Below are positions 2-29,423 of a stretch of DNA of 44,051 bases, piece by piece (positions within the stretch are counted from its first letter, which is position 1; every line of letters starts with the position of its first letter). The stretch lies in the IMG/VR virus record IMGVR_UViG_3300045988_124839; one strand, given 5' to 3'. Made by a program: the position numbers and the translations under genes. This DNA is from a virus (taxonomy: Duplodnaviria; Heunggongvirae; Uroviricota; Caudoviricetes). The notes under the pieces were generated by a model, which was not told the DNA's origin, did no database searches, and saw nothing but the letters and a program-made list of their open reading frames with translations.

Positions 2-2284
2 CTGCAACAGGGTGGTCAGGTTAAGGACTCCTTCGGCGGGATGATCCCCATGTTCAGGGGGCTTGCCGGTGCGATCACCCTGCCGATGGTCGGGGCCACC
101 TCGCTGGCGGTGGCGACCGGTGCGCTGGCGTATGCCTGGTATCAGGGCAACTCAACCCTGTCCGATTTCAACAAAACGCTGGTCCTTTCCGGCAATCAGT
201 CGGGTCTGACGGCAGATCGTATGCTGGTCCTGTCCAGAGCCGGGCAGGCGGCAGGGCTGACGTTTAACCAGACCAGCGAGTCACTCAGCGCACTGGTTAA
301 GGCGGGAGTAAGCGGTGAGGCTCAGATTGCATCCATCAGCCAGAGTGTGGCGCGTTTCTCCTCTGCATCCGGCGTGGAGGTGGACAAGGTTGCTGAAGCC
401 TTCGGGAAGCTGACCACAGACCCGACGTCGGGGCTGACGGCGATGGCGCGCCAGTTCCATAACGTGACGGCGGAGCAGATTGCGTATGTCGCTCAGTTGC
501 AGCGTTCCGGCGATGAAGCCGGGGCATTGCAGGCGGCGAACGAGGCCGCAACGAAAGGGTTTGATGACCAGACCCGACGCCTGAAAGAGAACATGGGCAC
601 GCTGGAAACCTGGGCAGACAGGACAGCACGGGCATTCAAATCCATGTGGGATGCGGTGCTGGATATTGGTCGTCCTGATACCGCTCAGGAGATGCTGATT
701 AAGGCAGAGGCTGCGTTTAAGAAAGCAGACGACATCTGGAATCTGCGCAAGGATGATTATTTTGTTAACGATGAAGCGCGGGCGCGTTACTGGGATGATC
801 GTGAAAAGGCCCGTCTTGCGCTTGAAGCCGCCCGAAAGAAGGCTGAGCAGCAGACTCAACAGGACAAAAATGCGCAGCAGCAGAGCGATACCGAAGCGTC
901 ACGGCTGAAATATACCGAAGAGGCGCAGAAGGCTTACGAACGCCTGCAGACGCCGCTGGAGAAATATACCGCCCGTCAGGAAGAACTGAACAAGGCACTG
1001 AAAGACGGGAAAATCCTGCAGGCAGATTACAACACGCTGATGGCGGCGGCGAAAAAGGATTATGAAGCGACGCTGAAAAAGCCGAAGCAGTCCGGCGTGA
1101 AGGTGTCTGCGGGCGATCGTCAGGAAGACAGTGCTCATGCTGCCCTGCTGACGCTTCAGGCAGAACTCCGGACGCTGGAGAAGCATGCCGGAGCGAATGA
1201 GAAAATCAGCCAGCAGCGCCGGGATTTGTGGAAGGCGGAGAATCAGTTCGCGGTACTGGAGGAGGCGGCGCAACGTCGCCAGCTGTCTGCACAGGAGAAA
1301 TCCCTGCTGGCGCATAAAGATGAGACGCTGGAGTACAAACGCCAGCTGGCTGCACTTGGCGATAAGGTCACGTATCAGGAGCACCTGAATGCGCTGGCGC
1401 AGCAGGCGGATAAATTCGCACAGCAGCAACGGGCAAAACGGGCCGCCATTGATGCGAAAAGCCGGGGGCTGACTGACCGGCAGGCAGCGCGGGAAGCCAC
1501 TGAACAGCGCCTGAAGGAACAGTATGGCGATAATCCGCTGGCGCTGAATAACGTCATGTCAGAGCAGAAAAAGACCTGGGCGGCTGAAGACCAGCTTCGC
1601 GGGAGCTGGATGGCAGGCCTAAAGTCCGGCTGGAGTGAGTGGGAAGAGAGCGCCACGGACAGTATGTCTCAGGTTAAAAGTGCTGCCACGCAGACCTTTG
1701 ATGGTATTGCACAGAATATGGCGGCGATGCTGACCGGCAGTGAACAGAACTGGCGCAGCTTCACCCGTTCCGTGCTGTCCATGATGACAGAAATTCTGCT
1801 TAAGCAGGCAATGGTGGGGATTGTCGGGAGTATCGGCAGCGCCATTGGCGGTGCTGCCAGTGGTGGAGCATCAGCGTCAGGCGGTACAGCCATTCAGGCC
1901 GCTGCGGCGAAATTCCATTTTGCGACCGGGGGATTTACGGGAACCGGCGGCAAATATGAGCCAGCGGGGATTGTTCACCGTGGTGAATTTGTCTTCACAA
2001 AGGAGGCAACCAGCCGGATTGGCGTGGGGAATCTCTATCGGCTGATGCGCGGCTATGCCACCGGTGGTTATGTCGGTACACCGGGCAGTCTGGCTGACAG
2101 CCGGTCGCAGGCGTCCGGGACGTTTGAGCAGAATAACCATGTGGTGATTAACAACGACGGCACGAACGGGCAGATAGGGCCACAGGCACTGAAGGCTGTT
2201 TATGACGTAGCCCGTAAGGCGGCAATGGATGTTGTGACCGGGCAGATGCGCGATGGTGGTCTGTTCTCCGGAGGTGGACGATGA
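2..2284 (+). CDS. H: tail tape measure protein (lambda gpH-like), 5' end outside window
   Basis: Open frame continues to window edge with no upstream stop; Gly/Ala-rich C-terminus typical of gpH; directly precedes M-L-K-I-J in lambda order. Confidence 0.9.
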   Translation: MQQGGQVKDSFGGMIPMFRGLAGAITLPMVGATSLAVATGALAYAWYQGNSTLSDFNKTLVLSGNQSGLTADRMLVLSRAGQAAGLTFNQTSESLSALVKAGVSGEAQIASISQSVARFSSASGVEVDKVAEAFGKLTTDPTSGLTAMARQFHNVTAEQIAYVAQLQRSGDEAGALQAANEAATKGFDDQTRRLKENMGTLETWADRTARAFKSMWDAVLDIGRPDTAQEMLIKAEAAFKKADDIWNLRKDDYFVNDEARARYWDDREKARLALEAARKKAEQQTQQDKNAQQQSDTEASRLKYTEEAQKAYERLQTPLEKYTARQEELNKALKDGKILQADYNTLMAAAKKDYEATLKKPKQSGVKVSAGDRQEDSAHAALLTLQAELRTLEKHAGANEKISQQRRDLWKAENQFAVLEEAAQRRQLSAQEKSLLAHKDETLEYKRQLAALGDKVTYQEHLNALAQQADKFAQQQRAKRAAIDAKSRGLTDRQAAREATEQRLKEQYGDNPLALNNVMSEQKKTWAAEDQLRGSWMAGLKSGWSEWEESATDSMSQVKSAATQTFDGIAQNMAAMLTGSEQNWRSFTRSVLSMMTEILLKQAMVGIVGSIGSAIGGAASGGASASGGTAIQAAAAKFHFATGGFTGTGGKYEPAGIVHRGEFVFTKEATSRIGVGNLYRLMRGYATGGYVGTPGSLADSRSQASGTFEQNNHVVINNDGTNGQIGPQALKAVYDVARKAAMDVVTGQMRDGGLFSGGGR

Positions 2285-15798: not shown

Positions 15799-17706
15799 AT
15801 GAGCAAAGTAAAAATCGGTGAATTAATAAACTCACTTGTTAGCGATGTTGAGTCAATAGATAACTCTGACCGTCCTCAAGGGGAAAAAACAAAAAAAATA
15901 AAAGCTGTTGCATTAAAATTTAAAAATGCATTATTTAATGACAAGCGAAAGTTTAGGGGGAAAGGATTAGAAAAAAGAATTACAGCCAACACATTCAATG
16001 CCTATATGAGCAGGGCCAGAAAACGGTTTGATGATAAACTTCATCATAGCTTTGAAAAAAATATACATCGCCTATCTGAAAAGTATCCTTTATATAATGA
16101 GGAGCTATTATCATGGCTTTCTCTACCTGCTGCCGATATTCGCCAGAGAATGTCAGCTTTACAGGCAAAATTAAAATTAATTCTCCCTTTATCAGAAGAT
16201 TTATCTAATATCAGAATTGGTGATAACAAAAGTCATAATAAGTTATTAAAATTATCAAATAAATATAAAGAGTGGCAATTCGCCATTTCTGATTTAACTA
16301 GCGATAACTGGAAAGATAAGCGCGATTATTTATATAAATTACTACAGCAAGGATCTGCCTTACTTGAGGAGTTGAATCAGCTAAAAGTTAACCATGAGAT
16401 TCTCTATCATCTTCAACTAAGCCCTGCCGAACGCGCATCTATCCAGCAACGATGGGCAGACGTTCTGCACAATAAGAAACGTAACGTGGTGGTCATTGAT
16501 TACCCTAAATATATGCAAGCTATTTACGATATTATAAATAGCCCTGCTACATTAAATAATCTAAACACTCGTTCAGGTATGGCTCCTTTGGCATTTGCAC
16601 TTGCTGCATTGTCAGGAAGACGAATGATTGAGATTATGTATCAAGGTACATTTACTGTTTCTGGTAAGTATACCGTTGATTTTTTAGGCCAAGCAAAAAA
16701 AAGAACTTCTGATGATATAACCAGAAAAATATATACATTATGCGAAGCAAAAACATTTGTTTATTTAATAAATGTACTTCGCTCATGCCCAGCAGCATCT
16801 GATTTTGATGATGTCGTTAAAGGTTATGGAGATAACGACACACGCTCTGAAAACGGACGGATTAATGCCATATTAGCAAAGGCTTTTAACCCGTGGGTTA
16901 AATCATTTTTCAAAGATGACCGCCGTGTTTATAAAGATAGTCGTGCTATTTATGCCCGTATTGCGTATGAAATGTTTTTCCGCGTAGATCCTCGTTGGAA
17001 AAACGTAGATGAGGATGTTTTCTTTATGGAAATTTTAGGCCATGACGATGAAAACACTCAATTACACTATAAGCAATTCAAGCTGGCCAACTTCTCAAAG
17101 ACATGGAGGCCAAATACTGGAAACGAAAATACCAGGCTGGAAGCATTGCAGCAGCTTGATGACGAAATGCCAGGATTCGCCAGAGGAGATGCCGGAGTTC
17201 GTCTGCATAACACAGTTAAGCAGCTGGTAGAGCAGGACCCCTCTATAAAAATCACGAACAGCACTCTAAGAGCATTCAAATTTAGCCCTACAATGATTAG
17301 TCGATACCTGGAATTTGCTGCTGATGCTCTGGGGCAATTTGTTGGCGAAAATGGACAATGGCAGCTGAAAATAGATTCTCCAGAAATCGTTATGCCTGAC
17401 GAAGAAGAGCTGGAAGCAATACCTGAACAGACGGATGAATTATCAGAGGATGACGATCTGGATGACGACGAAATTGAGATAGAGGAAGAGGAAGAGGAAG
17501 AGGAAGAGGAAGAGAGCGTAGAAGAACAGCAACCGCCCGCGCCTTCTTCACCTGTATCTAAGCCGGTATTTAAGCCTGTGAGAAATATTGGTGATGGCTC
17601 ATACGTTGTTGAGTTTCATTATAATGGCCAGAATTATGCTTGGTCCGGCAGTGCAAACAGCCCTATATCAGCAATGCAGTTAGCATGGCTGACATATTTC
17701 GGATAA
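15799..17706 (+). CDS. telN: protelomerase TelN
   Basis: 635 aa; N-terminus MSKVKIGELIN...RPQG.KTK.IKA...KNALFNDKRKFRGKGL.KRITANTFNAYMSRARKRFDDKLHHSF and much of the body match N15 TelN as recalled; acidic Glu/Asp-rich C-terminal tract; RBS AGGAGAGGAAAG. Confidence 0.95.
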   Translation: MSKVKIGELINSLVSDVESIDNSDRPQGEKTKKIKAVALKFKNALFNDKRKFRGKGLEKRITANTFNAYMSRARKRFDDKLHHSFEKNIHRLSEKYPLYNEELLSWLSLPAADIRQRMSALQAKLKLILPLSEDLSNIRIGDNKSHNKLLKLSNKYKEWQFAISDLTSDNWKDKRDYLYKLLQQGSALLEELNQLKVNHEILYHLQLSPAERASIQQRWADVLHNKKRNVVVIDYPKYMQAIYDIINSPATLNNLNTRSGMAPLAFALAALSGRRMIEIMYQGTFTVSGKYTVDFLGQAKKRTSDDITRKIYTLCEAKTFVYLINVLRSCPAASDFDDVVKGYGDNDTRSENGRINAILAKAFNPWVKSFFKDDRRVYKDSRAIYARIAYEMFFRVDPRWKNVDEDVFFMEILGHDDENTQLHYKQFKLANFSKTWRPNTGNENTRLEALQQLDDEMPGFARGDAGVRLHNTVKQLVEQDPSIKITNSTLRAFKFSPTMISRYLEFAADALGQFVGENGQWQLKIDSPEIVMPDEEELEAIPEQTDELSEDDDLDDDEIEIEEEEEEEEEEESVEEQQPPAPSSPVSKPVFKPVRNIGDGSYVVEFHYNGQNYAWSGSANSPISAMQLAWLTYFG

Positions 17707-17717
17707 AGCATACGGTA

Positions 17718-17741
17718 AAGGCACCGAATTATCGGTGCCTT
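17718..17741. terminator. hairpin terminator between telN and the leftward genes
   Basis: AAGGCACCGA-ATTA-TCGGTGCCTT (10-bp stem) followed by GTTGTGTGG on the + strand. Confidence 0.6.
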
Positions 17742-17751
17742 GTTGTGTGGT

Positions 17752-17916
17752 CTACCTCGCCTGCCCCTTTTCGTCCTCATCCAACTTTCTGATGGCCGTA
17801 GAATCAATACCCGCCGCCATACACACATCAGATGCAACAAACCACGGTTCGCCGTTGATCATCACTACACGAACCTGATGCTCTTCCTGAAAGGAAAATA
17901 CTGCTAACGCGCTCAT
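17752..17916 (-). CDS. short BRO-N-like ORF (possible antirepressor N-terminal fragment, 54 aa)
   Basis: Hand translation MSALAVFSFQEEHQVRVVMINGEPWFVASDVCMAAGIDSTAIRKLDEDEKGQAR; GEPWFVA.DV core resembles BRO-N domains; GGAGG 4 nt before ATG; not in the ORF track because it is under 60 aa. Confidence 0.4.
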   Translation of the reverse strand: MSALAVFSFQEEHQVRVVMINGEPWFVASDVCMAAGIDSTAIRKLDEDEKGQAR

Positions 17917-18146
17917 TCAGCCTCCTTATCGTGCAGCAATTGCGACGAGAGCGATGCTGAATAACCCTGTGCTTCGTGTGTTAGCTCACACGCAATTTGA
18001 AGGAGTTTCCCTGCTTCTGAGAGATAAATCGACGCCTCACAACTGGAGATTGTTCGATGGGCTGATGATACGAGCGCATAGACCTGAGCCAGACGTTCAT
18101 CCAACGATTCCAGCAGGCCAACAGTGTTCATTTTTACCTGATTCAT
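17913..18146 (-). CDS. hypothetical protein (77 aa)
   Basis: ORF with GAGGTGG RBS; stop overlaps the start of the next ORF (ATGA). Confidence 0.4.
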   Translation of the reverse strand: MNQVKMNTVGLLESLDERLAQVYALVSSAHRTISSCEASIYLSEAGKLLQIACELTHEAQGYSASLSSQLLHDKEAE

Positions 18147-18683
18147 GCAGCCACCTCGCGCACCGGAATACGGGCAGACAATACCAGGACAAACCGGCTG
18201 GCAAACTGGCGACGAGCTTCCCGTTCAGATGACGCGATGGTGGAAAGATGATGGATGTGTGACTTTTTGTCTGTGCGAACGATTGCCGCAAATTTGAATT
18301 TGAACATGGTATGCACTCCGTTTAATTGGTCGTGCTACCACCAGAGTTCCTACGCTCTATATGGCGGTAGCCCAGACGGGGGTAGGAATACCGGTAAACG
18401 AAGAAACCGGCCAGCTAAAAGCTGCCCCATCTGAGCCACCATAAATTTGGTGTACGCAGATTTTACACACAAAAAAACACGCTGGCGCGTGTTGTGCGCT
18501 TCATTTACTCGGGTTCCTACGCCCGGCTACGGGATTTACCGTAGCGGAGTAAACTTTACCGTCAAAACGACGCGCACGTCAATAATTTGCAAAGACATTT
18601 TACCCCGTGACCAGTCACGGGGACAGGTGTTTTTATAGTTTGCTTGAACGAGTGATCAGAAGTTGATCGTTAATCAAAGGCCA

Positions 18684-18995
18684 TTACTGATTAAGAGATT
18701 GGAAATACCTAACTAACTTACCGGCATCATCACATTTTTCTTTATCTTCGTCCTTAACATAGCCGCGACAAAAGGCTGAATAAAATTTTGCATTTTCAGA
18801 AGCAAAAGCAGCCGTCGAAAGGAGCAGCTCTTTGCATGACTCTTTTGATGCAGCATCGGGATTATTTTTACATGCAAGCTCCGCTGATGAGTTAATAACA
18901 GAAATGCTATCTTCCTGGGCATAAACCGCAGCAGAAAAGGCAAAACATAAAACAAAAATAAAACTCTTCACTTTATCTCCTGTAACAGTCATCAC
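18684..18995 (-). CDS. small secreted cysteine-containing protein (signal peptide)
   Basis: N-terminal KVKSFIFVLCFAFSAAVYA-QED signal-peptidase I type signal; four Cys in the mature part; AT-rich gene. Confidence 0.5.
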   Translation of the reverse strand: MMTVTGDKVKSFIFVLCFAFSAAVYAQEDSISVINSSAELACKNNPDAASKESCKELLLSTAAFASENAKFYSAFCRGYVKDEDKEKCDDAGKLVRYFQSLNQ

Positions 18996-19727: not shown

Positions 19728-19919
19728 TTACTCCCCGTTCACCGAAAATTCACGATAGAAACGTTTCCACATACGATAAGTCTGCGCAAATTGTTCACCA
19801 CGAAACATCGCCTTCCTGGCCTTCATGTTTTCCTTGTGAGACTTTCGGTCTATGAACCAAAACCATAGATGGAACACACAAAGCAAGAGACACAAAGATA
19901 ATATCCAATCATTACCCAT
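19728..19919 (-). CDS. small hydrophobic protein (63 aa)
   Basis: Internal ATG at 19919 overlapping the repA stop; hydrophobic segment LSLCLLLCVFHLWFWFI. Confidence 0.35.
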   Translation of the reverse strand: MGNDWILSLCLLLCVFHLWFWFIDRKSHKENMKARKAMFRGEQFAQTYRMWKRFYREFSVNGE

Positions 19920-22900
19920 AGAAAGCGCCCTGCTCTTCGTAGCTGCATGAGCTATTCCCCGTAATGTATTCACGTAACCGCCGCAGCTCATTGCTGGAAA
20001 GGTGATCCATGAACTCTGTGAGGTACAGGGATGCAAACGTCATAGCTATGCTGGCTGATGACCATGATGACATAGTGGCCAACTCCTCACTGGAAAGCGC
20101 ACTCATCGCCCAGGACTCAGGTACAGCCACTGGCAACACGGCCAAAGCCTCAGAAATTACTGAATGAGGGGCGTTTTGAACCTGCTCGTTTGTGGATCGC
20201 GTTTTATCATCCATATATATATTGAGATCCAAATCGCGATCCATTTCGATGGCTGTCTTCTCGGCTTTACGCGTTTTTAGGGTTAGGCCATCTTTCTGAC
20301 GCTGAACAAGAATATCCAGCATAAATGCCGCTGATTCAGGCTCAACAAAACGCAAGGTTGGACGCTTATCGCCGTCTCTGCCGCGACGTTTACCTGTTTT
20401 AAGGCCAAGAGAGTCGCAAATGTTTTTAAACAACGCTTCCGGCACTTTAGGCTTCCCTTTTGGCGTCATAAAACCACCAATGTGCAGAACGTTATTCAAC
20501 AGGTCACGGCGTTCGGCTGTCATGAGGTTATCTCGAGCGAATTTGAGACGCTCCTGAGTCGCCTCGCCGGTCATAGTCTCAGGGTTGATACCGCAGTCGA
20601 TAAAGTACTGCCGGAGAGTTGCTGATTTAAGCGCATAGAAACCGCGCGCCCCGACTTCAACAGTAGGAGTAGCTTTTACCTTGTGATCGATTATTCCAGG
20701 GAATTTAGTTTTAAAGACATCATCAGCCTGCTCGCGAGTCATCGCGGTCACTACAAAATATTGCCACTGTCCCGCCTGACGGTATGCGTAGGTAAAATTG
20801 ATGGCTGCTTCTTCCCGGTCGTAACGACGAGCTGTTACCTCATCTAAAAGCATTGTTTCATAGCGGCGAATTTTGTCTCGAGCACCATCGAAATAGAATT
20901 TTAGCGTGCCTTCTTCAACCGGTAGTTTCAGTTCGTTTTCAATATCCCAGCGGACAAGTTTTGCCTGTTCTTCAAGCGTCAGCGCGCGTTTTTTTAGCAG
21001 TTCTTCACGCTCTGATTCTTGTGGAGTTTCTGTATTGAGGTGCAGATCCAGTGTCTGTTCCCACACAATATCCCGCGCTTCTTTACGCAGATCTTTACCG
21101 ATATCATTCGCAGCATAATCGGTGGCCAGCGGCGATACCTTATAACCGTCGCTGTGCATGATGCAGATCATGTTGCTGGCGTAGTCGTTACGCGCAGTCG
21201 CTTCAATTGCGGCTGCTTTAATTTTCATCCTGGTAAAGTCGGTATTGGCCACCCCCATTGATATACGGTCGCCATCGAAAACGACATCCGTCAGTTCACC
21301 GTTCATACCTGCGGTAGCAAGCAATGCCTGGGCGAATGCTCGTTCTATTTTTTGCGGGTCAGTTTCACGTTTTGCACGAGCTTTATCAAAGCCGATAATA
21401 AATTCTTTCGCTGTACGGTCGCGGCGTAGCATTTGCACTGCGTCGCTGGGTACAACTTCACCACAGAACATGCCGAAATGACGGTCAAAATGTTTTTGCT
21501 CAATCGACACGCCGGATGAAATAGACGGGCTATAAATCAGGCCGTCGTATTTTTTGACCATCTTTTTCGGTTGATTGGTAAATGCTTCAACTTCTGGCTC
21601 TGGTTTGTTTTTCTGGTTTACACACAGAAATTTCTTACCAGGAAAATGCATTCTCAGGGTGGCTGTCACATCTTCTGCAAAGGTGGAGCTGTCGGTGGCC
21701 AACATGATTTTTTCCCCATCCGATACAGCTTTCACCACCTCGGTCATGATGCGATCTTTTTCTGTATAAAAAACCCGGATTGGCTCACCTGTTTCGCGGT
21801 TGCGAACATCAACAGGTAATTCAATTACGTGGATCTGCAGCCATGCCGGTAAACCTAGTTCTTCACGGCGTTTCATAGCCAGTTCAGCCAGGTCAACCAG
21901 CAGATCGTTCGCATCAGCATCTACCATGATTGGGTGTTGTTCCGTTCTGGCCAGCGCGTCAATTAGCGTATTGAATACAGCCACCGGGTTTTCCATAGCC
22001 CGACCGGAAAGAACGGCACGTAGCCCTTGTGTGGCCTCGTCAAAGCCAAAATAGTCGTGCTGGCGCATCAACGGTTGCCAGCAGTTTTTAACAATCGAGT
22101 TTATGCAGATGGTCAGTTTACTGGCGTATGGAGCCATTTCCTGATAGCCAGGATCCTGATAGTGCAGGATATCGGCTTTTACACCTTTTCCTTCTGTCAT
22201 CATTTCCCACAGGCCACCAATAAGGGAGACACGGTGAGCAACAGAGATACCACGTTCTGAGCTATGCATTAACGGTCGTAACAATCCAGTAGATTTGCCG
22301 GAACCCATACCAGCACGGACGATGACTATCCCCTGTAGTGATTGCACGTACTTCAGGACATCATCGGTCATTACCGAAGTTTCAAAACGCTTATAGGTGA
22401 TATGTTGAGGGCGTTTATTGGGATCAGTTATGCGTTCGCTGAAAGAGCGCGGAGCCTGGGCAATACGGCACTTTTTATTCAGGCGACGGGCAATGTGGTC
22501 TTTTACCGTAGCGCGATAGATATTTTCCAGTCCCATTTCACGCAGAACGATGCAGAACATGTTAAATAAATCTGACGGACTGTTAGGAACCGGACAGGTT
22601 AGCATGCCAATATCAACCGCTCTCAGCAGCTCTTTGGCAAAAGTACGACGGTTATCCCGCTTAATTGTCTTCAGGCGGTTGAGCGTCAGAGATAGCAAAT
22701 CAGTACCGGTTTTCAGGCGGTTTGCTGTTGCAAATAGTTGACGTGCTGTTTCACGAAGTCCACGTAGTTTGTGCAGGTCGTTGAAGTCACTGCACTCCAT
22801 TTGCGGATCGTCTTCAAAAGTTGGATAGACGCAGCGGACATCGTTGAATTTCGATAAGATTTCATAGCCAGTCCGCAGGCCTGTATTCCCTTTTCCTTCT

Positions 22901-23907
22901 GTGGCAGATTTCCGGTCATTATCCAGTGCGCAGGTGATTTTTGCCGCCGGGTACATGTTTACCAGTTGTTCCACAACATGAACCATGTTGTTAGCGGATA
23001 CAGCGACAACCACAGCGTCAAAGCGTTTATCTTTTTTCGTGGCAAGCCAGATGGATGCACCAGTAGCAAAACCTTCTGTAACAGCGATGTTTTGCGCCCC
23101 TTTCAGCTCACCGATAACAAAGCAGGCACCGACGAAATCGCCGCTGGTTACTGCGCTGGTCTGGTATTTCCCACCTTGTTTGTCGATTCGCTGCCAACCC
23201 ACAATACGACCATCATAACGACCGTCCAGGTGAGCCAGAGGGATAGCCATATATGTGGTTGGCCCCCGGCTCCATTTCGCACTGTCGTGACTGGTCACGC
23301 GACGCACATCACATGAACTAAAAACGTCACGAATACCTTTTTTAATCGCATATGGCCATGAGCCGTCTTCAGCCGGAGCATGTTCCCACGCGCTGTGGAA
23401 TGCCAGCCATCCCAGCAAACGTTCATGGTCCATTTGGTTGTTTTTCAGGTCATTAATTCGTTTTTGTTCTTCACGGCGACGACGTGCTTCGGCCTGACGT
23501 TCTATTCTTTCCCGTTCTTCTTCCGGTTGTGCGACCACGGTCGCATTATTCCGTTGTTGCTCACGGCGATATTCAGAAAACAGGAAGGAGAAACCGCTCC
23601 ATGAGCCAGCATCGCTGCCTTTATGGACGAAGTTAATGAACGGGTAATCAATCCCTTTGCTGTGTTCCAGCCTGGAGTAAATTTCTACGCGTCCTTTCAG
23701 GCTCTTTTCGAGAGCTTCTGGAGATGTTTTATTGTATGAAGAGTAACGCTCACCCCCCCCGCGAGGGTTGAGTTGGATGTTGTCGGAACAGGCAGGCCAG
23801 TTGATACCAGCCATCTGTGCCAGCTCGGTTAGTTCATCCCGTGCTGCTTCAATTAGCGAGAACGGATCGCTGCCAAAGCGATCCGCATAGAAATCGTTTA
23901 ATGTCAT
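19912..23907 (-). CDS. repA: replication protein RepA (primase-helicase)
   Basis: 1331 aa; Walker A GMGSGKST; size and position (leftward, between telN and cB) as N15 RepA (about 1320 aa). Confidence 0.85.
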   Translation of the reverse strand: MTLNDFYADRFGSDPFSLIEAARDELTELAQMAGINWPACSDNIQLNPRGGGERYSSYNKTSPEALEKSLKGRVEIYSRLEHSKGIDYPFINFVHKGSDAGSWSGFSFLFSEYRREQQRNNATVVAQPEEERERIERQAEARRRREEQKRINDLKNNQMDHERLLGWLAFHSAWEHAPAEDGSWPYAIKKGIRDVFSSCDVRRVTSHDSAKWSRGPTTYMAIPLAHLDGRYDGRIVGWQRIDKQGGKYQTSAVTSGDFVGACFVIGELKGAQNIAVTEGFATGASIWLATKKDKRFDAVVVAVSANNMVHVVEQLVNMYPAAKITCALDNDRKSATEGKGNTGLRTGYEILSKFNDVRCVYPTFEDDPQMECSDFNDLHKLRGLRETARQLFATANRLKTGTDLLSLTLNRLKTIKRDNRRTFAKELLRAVDIGMLTCPVPNSPSDLFNMFCIVLREMGLENIYRATVKDHIARRLNKKCRIAQAPRSFSERITDPNKRPQHITYKRFETSVMTDDVLKYVQSLQGIVIVRAGMGSGKSTGLLRPLMHSSERGISVAHRVSLIGGLWEMMTEGKGVKADILHYQDPGYQEMAPYASKLTICINSIVKNCWQPLMRQHDYFGFDEATQGLRAVLSGRAMENPVAVFNTLIDALARTEQHPIMVDADANDLLVDLAELAMKRREELGLPAWLQIHVIELPVDVRNRETGEPIRVFYTEKDRIMTEVVKAVSDGEKIMLATDSSTFAEDVTATLRMHFPGKKFLCVNQKNKPEPEVEAFTNQPKKMVKKYDGLIYSPSISSGVSIEQKHFDRHFGMFCGEVVPSDAVQMLRRDRTAKEFIIGFDKARAKRETDPQKIERAFAQALLATAGMNGELTDVVFDGDRISMGVANTDFTRMKIKAAAIEATARNDYASNMICIMHSDGYKVSPLATDYAANDIGKDLRKEARDIVWEQTLDLHLNTETPQESEREELLKKRALTLEEQAKLVRWDIENELKLPVEEGTLKFYFDGARDKIRRYETMLLDEVTARRYDREEAAINFTYAYRQAGQWQYFVVTAMTREQADDVFKTKFPGIIDHKVKATPTVEVGARGFYALKSATLRQYFIDCGINPETMTGEATQERLKFARDNLMTAERRDLLNNVLHIGGFMTPKGKPKVPEALFKNICDSLGLKTGKRRGRDGDKRPTLRFVEPESAAFMLDILVQRQKDGLTLKTRKAEKTAIEMDRDLDLNIYMDDKTRSTNEQVQNAPHSVISEALAVLPVAVPESWAMSALSSEELATMSSWSSASIAMTFASLYLTEFMDHLSSNELRRLREYITGNSSCSYEEQGAFYG

Positions 23908-28835: not shown

Positions 28836-29162
28836 ATGGCGCTGACACCGGCAGAACGGCAAAGGAGACGCAGGGAACGGTTGAAGAAGGAAGGCACATC
28901 AAGACGGGACTGGATTCTAGAACCTGACGAGTTACGTATGTTGGGGGAAATTTGTGTATTGCGTAGACCAGGGCGAGTTCCATATTCGGAGAACGAAGTC
29001 ATTGGTTTGCTGATCAGGAAAAACTATAAGGAGCTGCAGAAGCAGCTATCCACTACTTGCCCGCGATGTGGTCAAAAAATGCCTGTTTCAGAATGCATTT
29101 TTGATGGCGAAGGGTCATGCCACCTTACAACCACGAGGCTGAAACTTGCGCTCAAAGCGTGA
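28836..29162 (+). CDS. hypothetical protein with C-terminal zinc-ribbon-like Cys cluster
   Basis: 108 aa; basic N-terminus (RQRRRRERLKK); CPRCGQ...C...C. Confidence 0.4.
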   Translation: MALTPAERQRRRRERLKKEGTSRRDWILEPDELRMLGEICVLRRPGRVPYSENEVIGLLIRKNYKELQKQLSTTCPRCGQKMPVSECIFDGEGSCHLTTTRLKLALKA

Positions 29163-29180
29163 CTGGTCACGGAGGGATAA

Positions 29181-29423
29181 ATGGATAAAAAGGCATTGCT
29201 TTTTGAAATGATACGAAAACGGAGCGAAAAGAGCTTTTCTGATGGTGGTGATGGGTTTGTTTTCGCTTCGATGCTTGCTTTTGATGTTGGGTTAAATAGC
29301 AGAATTGTTAAAAGGATGCTTGATTCTGCTGTCCGTACTGGACTTCTTGAGAAAGTTGATCGTGGCATAGGGAGAGAGCATAAGTATCGGGCCACACAGC
29401 AGTTTACGCAGTTAATTCATTGA
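29181..29423 (+). CDS. hypothetical protein (80 aa)
   Basis: ORF with GGAGGG upstream; no recognisable motif. Confidence 0.4.
   Translation: MDKKALLFEMIRKRSEKSFSDGGDGFVFASMLAFDVGLNSRIVKRMLDSAVRTGLLEKVDRGIGREHKYRATQQFTQLIH

Follow-up and report, generated by a model that had tools for sequence, protein, structure and literature searches.

A probable anti-immunity (immA) operon leader with tandem isrK- and C4-type RNAs in an N15-like linear phage-plasmid

Analysis of positions 18147..18683 of the virus record IMGVR_UViG_3300045988_124839 (44,051 nucleotides, the whole of which is referred to as the window) showed that this interval very probably contains the immA (anti-immunity) control leader of an N15-like linear phage-plasmid, on the minus strand, together with the gene that opens the operon. 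Judged by sequence and gene order it is an ortholog of the phage N15 immA locus, and its switch is of a well-known phage kind and not a new one. The interval contained two full-length Rfam RNAs, one after the other on the minus strand, in agreement with the initial annotation, which had proposed a small-RNA locus. The covariance-model search that it had called for returned C4 with 73.6 bits (gathering threshold 45) and isrK with 62.5 bits (gathering threshold 50), both on the minus strand. The resemblance that it had seen to the N15 and P1 anti-immunity loci, where a small RNA precedes the antirepressor genes, was supported by the homology to N15 immA and by the presence of icd, antA and antB downstream. 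Two of its details, the lack of ORFs and a plus-strand terminator, were wrong, which leaves the small-RNA conclusion unaffected.

Genomic position and genes of the operon

All parts of the locus were on the minus strand in the order promoter, isrK/seqA-type leader RNA, C4-type RNA, icd, antA and truncated antB. The locus was flanked by a telN-like gene (15799..17706, plus strand) and a repA-like gene (23907..19912, minus strand). In an N15-type immA operon, leader RNAs followed by icd, antA and antB lie between a protelomerase gene and the repA operon; the arrangement here is the same and agreed with the maps of N15, phiKO2 and YDC107_1. Alignment with the N15 immA locus showed 79% DNA identity, and the N15 locus produced the same two Rfam matches (isrK and C4) in the same order at its annotated immA terminator. 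The isrK and C4 pair was also found in 11 further relatives, P4 among them. In addition, six RefSeq E. coli plasmid records, of which pCAVP367-48, carried by E. coli CAVp367, is one, were 99.7% identical across the 600-bp locus. The promoter and genes were as follows.

18582..18553, minus strand: promoter of the anti-immunity operon (N15 Pa equivalent), sigma-70-like, from promoter scan
18582..18577, minus strand: -35 hexamer TTGACG, with an 18-nt spacer to the -10 hexamer
18558..18553, minus strand: -10 hexamer TAAAGT, with a predicted transcription start near 18545
18307..18143, minus strand: icd, 54-aa Icd-like inhibitor of host cell division (NCBIfam NF033153)
18146..17913, minus strand: antA, 77-aa homologue of the N15 AntA antirepressor (gp31), from protein identity
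17916..17752, minus strand: truncated antB, BRO-family auxiliary antirepressor, 54 aa (Pfam Bro-N)

The initial annotation had reported no convincing ORF in the interval. The conserved icd at 18307..18143, annotated in the 99.7%-identical RefSeq plasmids (WP_001542488.1), contradicts this, and the part free of protein genes is 18308..18683 only. The operon opens with icd, which scored 66.8 bits with NF033153 (cut-off 25); its product was 92.6% identical to N15 Icd, and its Shine-Dalgarno sequence GGAG was located 8 nt upstream of the ATG. The AntA homologue was 66% identical to N15 gp31 and 93.5% identical to the YDC107_1 homologue, and it matched phrog_10889 'anti-repressor' with an E value of 1e-18; the phiKO2 record names its homologue AntA, antirepressor. 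The icd stop codon overlaps the antA start and the antA stop codon overlaps the antB start, both as ATGA, and these overlaps are consistent with translational coupling.

The BRO-N-like ORF noted earlier downstream on the minus strand was identified as the truncated antB, with a Pfam Bro-N score of 30.7 bits over model positions 1-41 of 96. The full-length AntB (~260 aa, BRO family) of an N15-type immA operon was not found at this position, where 54 aa were left. Compared to YDC107_1, a deletion of ~735 bp with its junction at ~17765..17767 (the blastn breakpoints overlap by 3 nt) had removed antB from codon 52 onwards. The same truncation was present in PhiR46_1 and in pCAVP367-48. Operon output may be weakened by the truncation. 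A search of Pfam, NCBIfam and PHROGs assigned no function to the neighbouring 103-, 135- and 108-aa minus-strand genes.

Leader RNAs, pairing elements and covariation

Both promoter hexamers were conserved in all N15-like relatives, and the Rfam isrK model started 8 nt downstream of the -10 hexamer. The RNA elements of the leader, all of them on the minus strand, were as follows.

18545..18472, minus strand: leader RNA of isrK / P4 seqA type (Rfam RF01394, 62.5 bits)
18545..18526, minus strand: leader hairpin 1, with 5 compensatory pairs
18525..18510, minus strand: leader hairpin 2, whose loop carries target b1
18520..18514, minus strand: target b1, GUAGGAA, in the loop of leader hairpin 2
18507..18499, minus strand: target a1, UAAAUGAAG, in the linker, shortly before the leader terminator
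18493..18471, minus strand: leader intrinsic terminator (N15 Ta equivalent), stem 18493..18476 followed by a U-run, from terminator scan
18446..18360, minus strand: antisense RNA of C4 / P4 CI / N15 CA type (Rfam RF01695, 73.6 bits)
18403..18395, minus strand: recognition element a', CUUCGUUUA, in the loop of the second internal hairpin (MFE fold)
18388..18382, minus strand: recognition element b', UUCCUAC, in an unpaired junction (MFE fold)
18353..18347, minus strand: target b2, GUAGGAA, in the downstream target region 18353..18316
18324..18316, minus strand: target a2, UAAACGGAG, which contains the icd Shine-Dalgarno sequence GGAG (18319..18316)

The isrK match covered model positions 1-77 of 77 and included two 5' hairpins and an intrinsic terminator. 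This terminator, reported earlier at ~18470-18495 on the minus strand, is real: the Rfam isrK match ends with it, and the terminator scan called it independently. A weaker match to RF03163 'c4-a1b1' was found at 18558..18506 with 34.3 bits (E value of 1e-6), below the gathering threshold of 46.7 that five Klebsiella relatives passed. Complementarity to C4, the functional criterion for c4-a1b1 targets, was present despite this sub-threshold score.

The C4 match covered model positions 1-87 of 87. The RNA formed a 16-bp closing stem around two internal hairpins with an MFE of -44.4 kcal/mol (z -5.6), and the fold was the same as the Rfam consensus. The closing stem was 100% paired in 22 sequences with 4 compensatory pairs, while the first internal hairpin had 3 compensatory pairs. 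Overall, the intramolecular helices were 96.8% paired with 13 compensatory pairs, and none of 500 shuffles scored as high. The stop-codon count over the 87-nt C4 segment was uninformative, this segment being short and G+C-rich; the usable observation on coding was that no conserved frame runs into icd.

Element b' paired with both b1 and b2 on the same transcript over 7 nt each, and in a complementarity search a' formed 9 bp with either of its targets, a1 and a2, one of the nine being G-U in each case. A motif had also been described as occurring twice in the interval. Its first half, the 10-mer GTTCCTACGC, was exact at 18346..18355 and 18513..18522, 167 bp apart, and it marks the b1 and b2 target sites of the UUCCUAC segment. 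The second half was approximate only (CGGTAGC vs CCGTAGC), and of the two copies of the motif one falls within the C4 closing stem and the other within isrK hairpin 1. CGGUAAA in the hairpin-1 loop, complementary to UUUACCG of C4 over 7 nt, was considered as the upstream 'a' target and rejected: ~2 chance 7-mer matches are expected, and the loop had no equivalent in N15 or other relatives. The conserved a1 site is in the linker, shortly before the terminator.

Comparison of 28 distinct related leaders showed that in all 28 b' had at least 7 nt of perfect complementarity to b1 and likewise to b2, with six b sequence types represented. In the 22-sequence alignment, b':b2 had 5 pairs with compensatory changes and a covariation score of 0.498 (0.104 in shuffles), and b1:b' had 6 such pairs and a score of 0.415 (0.09 in shuffles); in both cases 0 of 500 shuffles scored as high. 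When the partner was shifted by 1-3 columns, the b covariation scores fell to 0.04-0.20. For the a elements, a':a1 was complementary over at least 7 nt (G-U allowed) at 28 of 28 loci compared to 35% of non-cognate pairs, and a':a2 at 71% of loci compared to 25% of non-cognate pairs; covariation at a2 was weaker than that of the b elements. RNAduplex separated cognate from non-cognate pairs well for b':b1 (-13.6 vs -6.7 kcal/mol) and weakly for b':b2 and a', because flanking C-runs and G-U pairs give background pairing. Pairing was assessed by exact-complement and column-wise counts in preference to RNAduplex energies. Family membership in sequence and structure, the order of the genes, the unpaired state of the recognition elements in the predicted fold and their covariation with the targets are established here.

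Proposed regulation and alternative explanations

RNA processing, the influence on termination, the block to translation and the phenotype are proposed by analogy with the homologues in N15, P4, P1 and Gifsy-1. Transcription would begin at the sigma-70-type promoter 18582..18553, and most transcripts would end at the leader terminator to give a ~75-nt isrK/seqA-type leader RNA. Read-through transcripts would carry the C4/CI/CA-type RNA 18446..18360, which would then be cut out; for the window we infer cutting by RNase P, with its cut at the 5' end, RNase P being the enzyme that cuts the antisense RNA from the transcript in P1 and P4. The mature RNA would expose a' and b' for pairing with b1/a1 and b2/a2 on further transcripts made from the operon promoter. 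At b1/a1, immediately ahead of the leader terminator, pairing would favour termination, the reported effect of such upstream pairing in N15 and P4. Pairing with b2/a2 would cover the icd Shine-Dalgarno sequence and leave icd and the translationally coupled antA (and antB') untranslated; in P1, the reported effect of such downstream pairing is a translation block. The net outcome in a lysogen would be that the antirepressor and the cell-division inhibitor are kept off. The short leader RNA carries b1/a1 and could therefore also titrate the antisense RNA, in the manner of Gifsy-1 IsrK.

The MFE fold of the read-through leader showed b1/a1 paired with b'/a' in cis. This cis pairing matches the inactive 'structure A' of Gifsy-1 isrK-orf45, which was demonstrated by mutagenesis (PMC4825925). 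IsrK has been described as a structural homologue of P4 seqA, and the downstream STnc1160 RNA has been likened to CI RNA (PMC4825925). The homologous short RNA of Gifsy-1 was shown to activate, not repress (PMC4825925), and whether the net regulation is positive or negative depends on the relative amounts of the RNA species.

Activation of the IsrK type as the main function is possible and rather unlikely. Leader RNA 18545..18472 would then act in trans, pairing with a'/b' of read-through transcripts and opening the icd ribosome-binding site as a positive antirepressor trigger. The isrK score above the gathering threshold, the cis pairing and the exact a'/b'-complementary sequences on the leader RNA all fit this function. 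However, it is compatible with the repressor model, the only difference being the RNA species present in excess. For N15 immA the function recognized first was secondary immunity, a repressing one, with U63086 annotating 'cA: secondary immunity repressor', and in the window a separate icd with its own Shine-Dalgarno sequence, overlapped by a2, follows the C4 RNA, whereas Gifsy-1 orf45 overlaps the C4-like region. Experiments on Hfq binding and trans-activation of read-through mRNA by the IsrK family are from Salmonella only (PMC4825925).

A decaying remnant, in which antB was deleted and the operon and its RNA control no longer work, is improbable. The ~735-bp deletion took 80% of antB. However, icd and antA were intact and close to relatives with full-length antB, every RNA element was full length, b'/b1/b2 matched perfectly and a'/a1/a2 retained 9 bp with one G-U each. 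The allele was also found in phage PhiR46_1 and in pCAVP367-48. AntB is called only an 'auxiliary' antirepressor in the phiKO2 annotation, and a review describes its function as not elucidated (PMC4488713).

An independent sRNA gene between two convergent intrinsic terminators, with the hairpin at 18603..18640 ending a plus-strand transcript, is more improbable still. The sequence in question was as follows.

18603..18622, no strand assigned: CCCCGTGAC-CA-GTCACGGGG, a perfect inverted repeat (9+9) preceding the promoter

The hairpin at 18603..18622 folded with -22.7 kcal/mol on the plus strand (z -4.5) and -16 kcal/mol on the minus strand (z -2.4), was followed on the plus strand by UGUUUUUAU, and had A-tract and T-tract flanks that were conserved in relatives. 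The initial annotation had called it a strong plus-strand intrinsic terminator. A canonical terminator has its T-run 0-2 nt past a G+C-rich stem and closes a transcription unit, and here T5 was at 18630..18634, 7 nt past the stem; the terminator scan of both strands did not call this hairpin because the T-run begins 7 nt after the stem. Both Rfam RNAs were on the minus strand, and 17707..18600 had neither a plus-strand gene nor a plus-strand promoter-like site upstream of the hairpin. Furthermore, the outer stem was not kept in N15, KpLi5 and phiKO2 and had no compensatory change. The description of the two terminators as convergent was misleading, the minus-strand one being a leader-internal attenuator and not a gene end.

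The core of the inverted repeat (18606..18619) is a 14-bp palindrome, CGTGAC-NN-GTCACG, which occurred exactly three times in the window, with the other copies at 23286 and 29158. It also occurred exactly three times in N15 and in the phiKO2 right arm, and the sites were syntenic in all three genomes: one precedes the immA promoter, one is within repA, and one spans the gp46-like stop codon just before the gp47-like gene. In the window, the gp46-like protein is encoded at 28836..29162 and the gp47-like protein at 29181..29423. The copies inside repA and at the gp46/gp47 junction had no T-run. PY54 lacks gp46 and also lacks the palindrome sites. The distribution of these sites suggests that the palindrome is probably a protein-binding site, and the hairpin may also act as a weak bidirectional terminator. 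Tentatively, the palindrome could represent one of three operators of an undescribed DNA-binding protein, and a regulator, for example the gp46-like zinc-ribbon protein, could in that case link its own operon with replication and the anti-immunity promoter. Known sites did not account for it: the published N15 SopB centromere IR sites are GTGCGACC-NN-GGTCGCAC (PMC7205306), five of which were found in the window, elsewhere than the palindrome; N15 CB repressor operators are of the TTATAGCTGGCTATAA type; and by eye there was no fit to the LexA box CTGT-N8-ACAG. A full-text literature search for the palindrome sequence returned only unrelated mammalian papers.

The least probable explanation is a protein regulator encoded between the terminator and icd (the N15 'cA'/gp32 frame, an Ash-family protein or an orf45-like peptide), for which there are GenBank N15 records annotating a 96-100-aa gp32/cA protein over the stretch, an 'ash family protein' pseudogene that RefSeq places there in a related plasmid, a 37-aa ORF at 18470..18357 with a weak Phage_ASH match, and translation of Gifsy-1 orf45 (PMC4825925); against it, the Phage_ASH score of 17.9 bits is below the Pfam cut-off of 26 with no NCBIfam match, just 9 of 27 leaders have a frame that continues uninterrupted from the C4 region to icd, the window's frame upstream of icd is closed 3 codons above the ATG, the 'ash' pseudogene coincides with the Rfam C4 match, and the substitutions obey RNA pairing, both in the compensatory helix pairs and in the coordinated three-site b changes.

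Comparison with known systems and significance

An antisense-RNA-controlled anti-immunity operon, the preferred reading, has its closest counterpart in N15 immA (Pa, CA RNA, Ta, icd-antA-antB). The two share the operon position between telN and repA, the tandem isrK and C4 matches, the terminator, the promoter hexamers and the 14-bp palindrome upstream of the promoter, in addition to the leader, Icd and AntA identities given above (79%, 93% and 66%). They differ in the recognition elements: b' is UUCCUAC here and GUUGAGA in N15, and a' is CUUCGUUUA here and CUUCUUGUA in N15, with the targets changed to match in both cases. A different regulatory specificity is therefore predicted. AntB has 54 aa here compared to 264 aa in N15. 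The N15 mechanism is taken from secondary citations (PMC4488713) and GenBank annotation.

P4 immunity (seqA, CI RNA = seqB, seqC) produced the two Rfam matches in the same order with 77.5% identity over the C4 part. The processed P4 RNA has target sites on both sides of itself in the transcript from which it comes, the logic also predicted for the window, and a/b complementarity was found in both P4 target sets. Unlike the window, P4 has a 107-nt spacer between leader and CI RNA, its RNA controls replication genes and not icd/ant, and its b type is UUCUCAC, which is common to some N15-like Klebsiella phages.

The P1/P7 c4 system with icd-ant1/2 was compared through the RNA family (RF01695), which it shares with the window, and established literature. 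The recognition elements a' and b' of P1 c4 have an upstream target pair, a1/b1, and a downstream one, a2/b2, which overlaps the icd ribosome-binding site, and P1 icd is translationally coupled to the antirepressor gene. Unlike P1, the window has a small AntA and a BRO-family remnant in place of Ant1/2, and its score with the a1/b1 target model RF03163 was below threshold (34.3 vs 46.7).

Salmonella Gifsy-1 (isrK - orf45/STnc1160 - anrP) has a leader RNA of the same Rfam family, and read-through past its leader terminator feeds a downstream antirepressor gene. Pairing of the mid-leader in cis with the C4-like region is predicted here and was demonstrated in Gifsy-1 (PMC4825925). In contrast to the window, where a separate icd follows, the Gifsy-1 short RNA activates translation and orf45 overlaps the C4-like RNA (PMC4825925); furthermore, Gifsy-1 is an integrated lambdoid prophage and not a linear plasmid prophage.

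The a and b elements were found in 17 combinations in 28 leaders, and some b types were common to P4. It is conceivable, as a tentative suggestion separate from the three-operator idea for the palindrome, that the a/b elements recombine freely and form a two-key addressing code that determines cross-regulation among co-resident phage-plasmids and satellites.

Overall, the interval is read as an antisense-RNA gate on an antirepressor operon and not as an orphan sRNA candidate. The 99.7%-identical RefSeq plasmids have no RNA annotation at this locus, and in a relative a spurious 'ash family protein' pseudogene is placed over the RNA gene. The comparative evidence indicates that one switch is made up of two Rfam families, isrK as its target half and C4 as its effector half, with two recognition elements that co-vary at three sites each, and the anti-immunity specificity is predicted to differ from that of N15. 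The current understanding of phage immunity is unchanged by this locus; it is of use for annotation and as a clean natural data set on covariation.

RNAs and genes of the anti-immunity locus

The Rfam scan, which covered the whole window at gathering thresholds, produced exactly two matches, C4 antisense RNA and isrK. Both were full-model, minus-strand matches within 18147..18683, and so the covariance models upheld the small-RNA locus that the initial annotation had proposed there. Directly upstream of isrK was a promoter-like site, from which transcription is predicted to begin exactly where the isrK model does. The terminator within the isrK match was the minus-strand terminator noticed earlier, and it was recovered by the terminator scan. 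RF03163 ("a1, b1 targets of C4") aligned to the leader's 5' half at a relaxed threshold, with 34.3 bits, short of the 46.7 bits of its gathering cut-off. When the C4 RNA was folded (MFE -44.4 kcal/mol, z -5.6), two stretches stayed unpaired, one in the loop of the second internal hairpin (a') and one at the junction preceding the closing stem (b'); these are the recognition elements of the antisense RNA. The features are as follows, with a1/b1 and a2/b2 as the upstream and downstream targets.

Features of the locus and its surroundings
23907..19912, minus: RepA-like primase gene, 1331 aa; heads the long operon whose end is the minus-strand block facing the protelomerase-like ORF
18582..18553, minus: promoter-like site, TTGACG, 18-nt spacer, TAAAGT (promoter scan)
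18545..18472, minus: isrK (RF01394), 62.5 bits (gathering score 50)
18520..18514, minus: b1, GUAGGAA, loop of leader hairpin 2
18507..18499, minus: a1, UAAAUGAAG, leader linker immediately 5' of the terminator; pairs with a'
18493..18476, minus: terminator stem, followed by a U-run
18446..18360, minus: C4 antisense RNA (RF01695), 73.6 bits (gathering score 45)
18403..18395, minus: a', CUUCGUUUA, loop of the second internal hairpin of the C4 RNA
18388..18382, minus: b', UUCCUAC, junction segment of the C4 RNA, unpaired in the MFE fold
18353..18347, minus: b2, GUAGGAA, just 3' of the C4 RNA
18324..18316, minus: a2, UAAACGGAG, includes the icd Shine-Dalgarno; pairs with a'
18307..18143, minus: icd, 54 aa, NCBIfam Icd-like model 66.8 bits (cut-off 25)
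minus strand: AntA homologue, 77 aa, 66% identity to N15 gp31, phrog_10889 'anti-repressor' match
17916..17752, minus: truncated antB (antB'), 54 aa, BRO-N domain
15799..17706, plus: protelomerase-like ORF, 635 aa (ORF map); converges on the minus-strand block

The interval was not free of genes as had been supposed: icd, with GGAG 8 nt upstream, encodes a protein with 93% identity to N15 Icd. The BRO-N ORF predicted downstream was confirmed as an antB gene that, compared with YDC107_1, has lost about 735 bp and is thereby shortened to 54 aa; the deletion joint lies at about 17766 (17765..17767) and shows a 3-nt overlap. The window shares this truncated allele with phage PhiR46_1 and with pCAVP367-48, a plasmid from a set of six RefSeq E. 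coli plasmid records with 99.7% identity over the locus, while a gene of about 260 aa is retained in N15, phiKO2, KpLi5 and YDC107_1.

The window belongs to the N15-like linear phage-plasmids. A 1-kb region showed 92.6% identity to PhiR46_1, 89.6% to YDC107_1 and 78.6% to N15, the last across 64% of the region length. The N15 match spans genes 33|32|31|30, adjoining telN, and takes in both a rho-independent terminator annotated there and the former "cA secondary immunity repressor". The N15 leader gave the same two Rfam matches in the same order, and its isrK terminator coincides with the annotated one. In the phiKO2 record, the three downstream genes are annotated as homologous to icd, the antirepressor AntA and the auxiliary antirepressor AntB of N15. 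The Rfam matches, the orthology with the N15 anti-immunity locus immA and the downstream icd, AntA and AntB genes supported the earlier reading of an N15/P1-type anti-immunity RNA.

Covariation of the pairing elements

The b' element is the exact complement of GUAGGAA at both b1 and b2. These two sites, seen on the opposite strand, are the repeated motif of the initial annotation, found here as an exact 10-mer GTTCCTACGC at 18346..18355 and 18513..18522, 167 bp apart. In each target set b precedes a (5'-b...a-3'), antiparallel to the antisense RNA, where a' precedes b' (5'-a'...b'-3').

The isrK and C4 tandem was present in every phage relative tested, P4 included. A total of 28 distinct leaders were compared, 13 from phage records and the remainder from IMG/VR contigs that were found by a 14-mer and filtered by an nhmmer profile. 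In all 28, b' matched both b1 and b2 by perfect complementarity of 7 nt or more, despite about six b sequence types; in N15 the RNA carries GUUGAGA and each target UCUCAAC, compared to UUCCUAC for b' of the window. Covariation was scored on a 22-sequence MAFFT alignment with 500 shuffles. Five pairs of the b':b2 helix were changed on both sides (score 0.498 against 0.104 shuffled) and six of the b1:b' helix (0.415 against 0.087), and no shuffle scored as high for either (0/500). Sliding the partner by 1-3 columns lowered both scores to 0.04-0.20. The a element had 13 sequence variants in the 28 leaders. With G-U pairs counted, a' paired with its cognate a1 over 7 nt or more at 28/28 loci and with its cognate a2 at 71% of loci; non-cognate combinations did so in 35% and 25% of cases, respectively, so a2 is less strongly supported. 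The a and b types assort independently (17 combinations in 28 leaders), and the combination of the window was also present in five IMG/VR contigs.

The stretch over C4 has also been read as coding for protein: old N15 records translate it as gp32/cA, and in a related plasmid (NZ_CP101200.1) the RefSeq annotation has a partial "ash family protein" pseudogene squarely on the C4 RNA gene (within the locus taken from that record, the pseudogene CDS is at 520..642 and the Rfam C4 match at 555..642). However, the window ORF over C4 matched Phage_ASH at a sub-threshold 17.9 bits (cut-off 26) and had no NCBIfam match, and the frame fails to stay open as far as icd in most relatives. The substitutions instead obey pairing rules, as the internal helices of both RNAs were 96.8% paired with 13 compensatory pairs (0/500 shuffles as high). 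The coding annotation is therefore regarded as an artefact and, given the pseudogene on the C4 gene and the sub-threshold match, a portion of the Ash protein family appears to consist of translated C4 RNA gene sequence. The pCAVP367-48 record, near-identical at the locus, has no ncRNA annotated.

Upstream palindrome and adjoining gene

The perfect inverted repeat reported previously, CCCCGTGAC-CA-GTCACGGGG, was present at 18603..18622. Its interpretation as a plus-strand terminator did not hold, as the terminator scan called nothing there on either strand and the T-run starts 7 nt past the stem. The extended structure had -22.7 kcal/mol (z -4.5) on the plus strand and -16 kcal/mol (z -2.4) on the minus strand, and the hairpin may act as a weak terminator in either direction. 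The outer stem is broken without compensation in N15, KpLi5 and phiKO2, while the 14-bp core CGTGAC-NN-GTCACG is invariant in the N15-like relatives examined, save one mismatch in phiKO2. A sequence search found exactly three copies of this palindrome in the window:

18606..18619: upstream of the immA promoter
23286..23299: inside repA
29158..29171: spanning the stop codon of the gp46-like gene, immediately before the gp47-like gene

The sites are syntenic with the three copies in N15 (28549, 33236 and 39268) and the three in the phiKO2 right arm, and 0.035 matches to the 12-bp core were expected in shuffled windows. Neither palindrome sites nor a gp46 homologue was found in PY54. The palindrome is a probable binding site of a regulator. 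Comparison with the N15 CB operators ruled out a CB operator, and the differing IR sequence published for N15 SopB (PMC7205306) ruled out the SopB centromere repeat. N15-type SopB centromere IRs (GTGCGACC-NN-GGTCGCAC, 0-1 mismatch) were found separately in the window in five copies (23529, 25972, 30984, 33994 and 34214) against 0.21 in shuffled sequence, scattered across the replication and early region like the IR1-4 described in N15.

Just upstream of the locus, a 103-aa gene (18684..18995, minus) has a signal-peptide-like N-terminus. Its sole match was phrog_26765 (unknown function), with none in Pfam or NCBIfam, and its PhiR46_1 homologue is annotated 'Spackle exclusion protein'.

Proposed regulation and distribution

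The anatomy of the window locus matches the schemes of P1 c4 (a1 b1, c4, a2 b2, icd-ant) and P4 (seqA, CI, seqC), and a mechanism is therefore proposed. The analysis shows family membership, anatomy and covariation, and the RNA processing and the effects on termination and translation are inferences from homologous systems. Most transcripts from the promoter would stop at the leader terminator, and the C4-type RNA would be made by processing of read-through transcripts. Pairing of this RNA with b1/a1 on nascent transcripts would favour termination, as in N15 and P4, and pairing with b2/a2 would occlude the icd ribosome-binding site, as in P1. A block of icd should silence the antirepressor too because icd/antA and antA/antB' overlap by ATGA.

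In the whole-leader MFE fold, b1/a1 were paired in cis with b'/a'. This fold prediction for the window corresponds to the translationally inactive "structure A" of Gifsy-1, which was proved there via compensatory mutations (PMC4825925). The same paper describes IsrK as a structural homologue of P4 seqA with an activating effect, and likens the stable RNA STnc1160, downstream of IsrK, to CI (PMC4825925). Since it has b1/a1, the short leader RNA could titrate the antisense RNA, and IsrK's activating effect would be explained in this way.

A search of ecoli_genomes with 18100..18700 (600 bp) matched 464 of 5426 complete E. coli genomes, mostly at 80-90% identity and mostly chromosomal, which indicates that isrK-C4-icd modules are widespread in E. 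coli prophages and satellites. The b type of the P4 satellite, UUCUCAC, is common to some N15-like Klebsiella phages and IMG/VR contigs, and cross-talk between phage-plasmids and P4-like satellites is thus conceivable. Overall, the locus belongs to a well-characterised kind that includes N15 immA, P4 CI, P1 c4 and Gifsy-1 isrK, and in the window it has recognition sequences of its own and a truncated auxiliary antirepressor.
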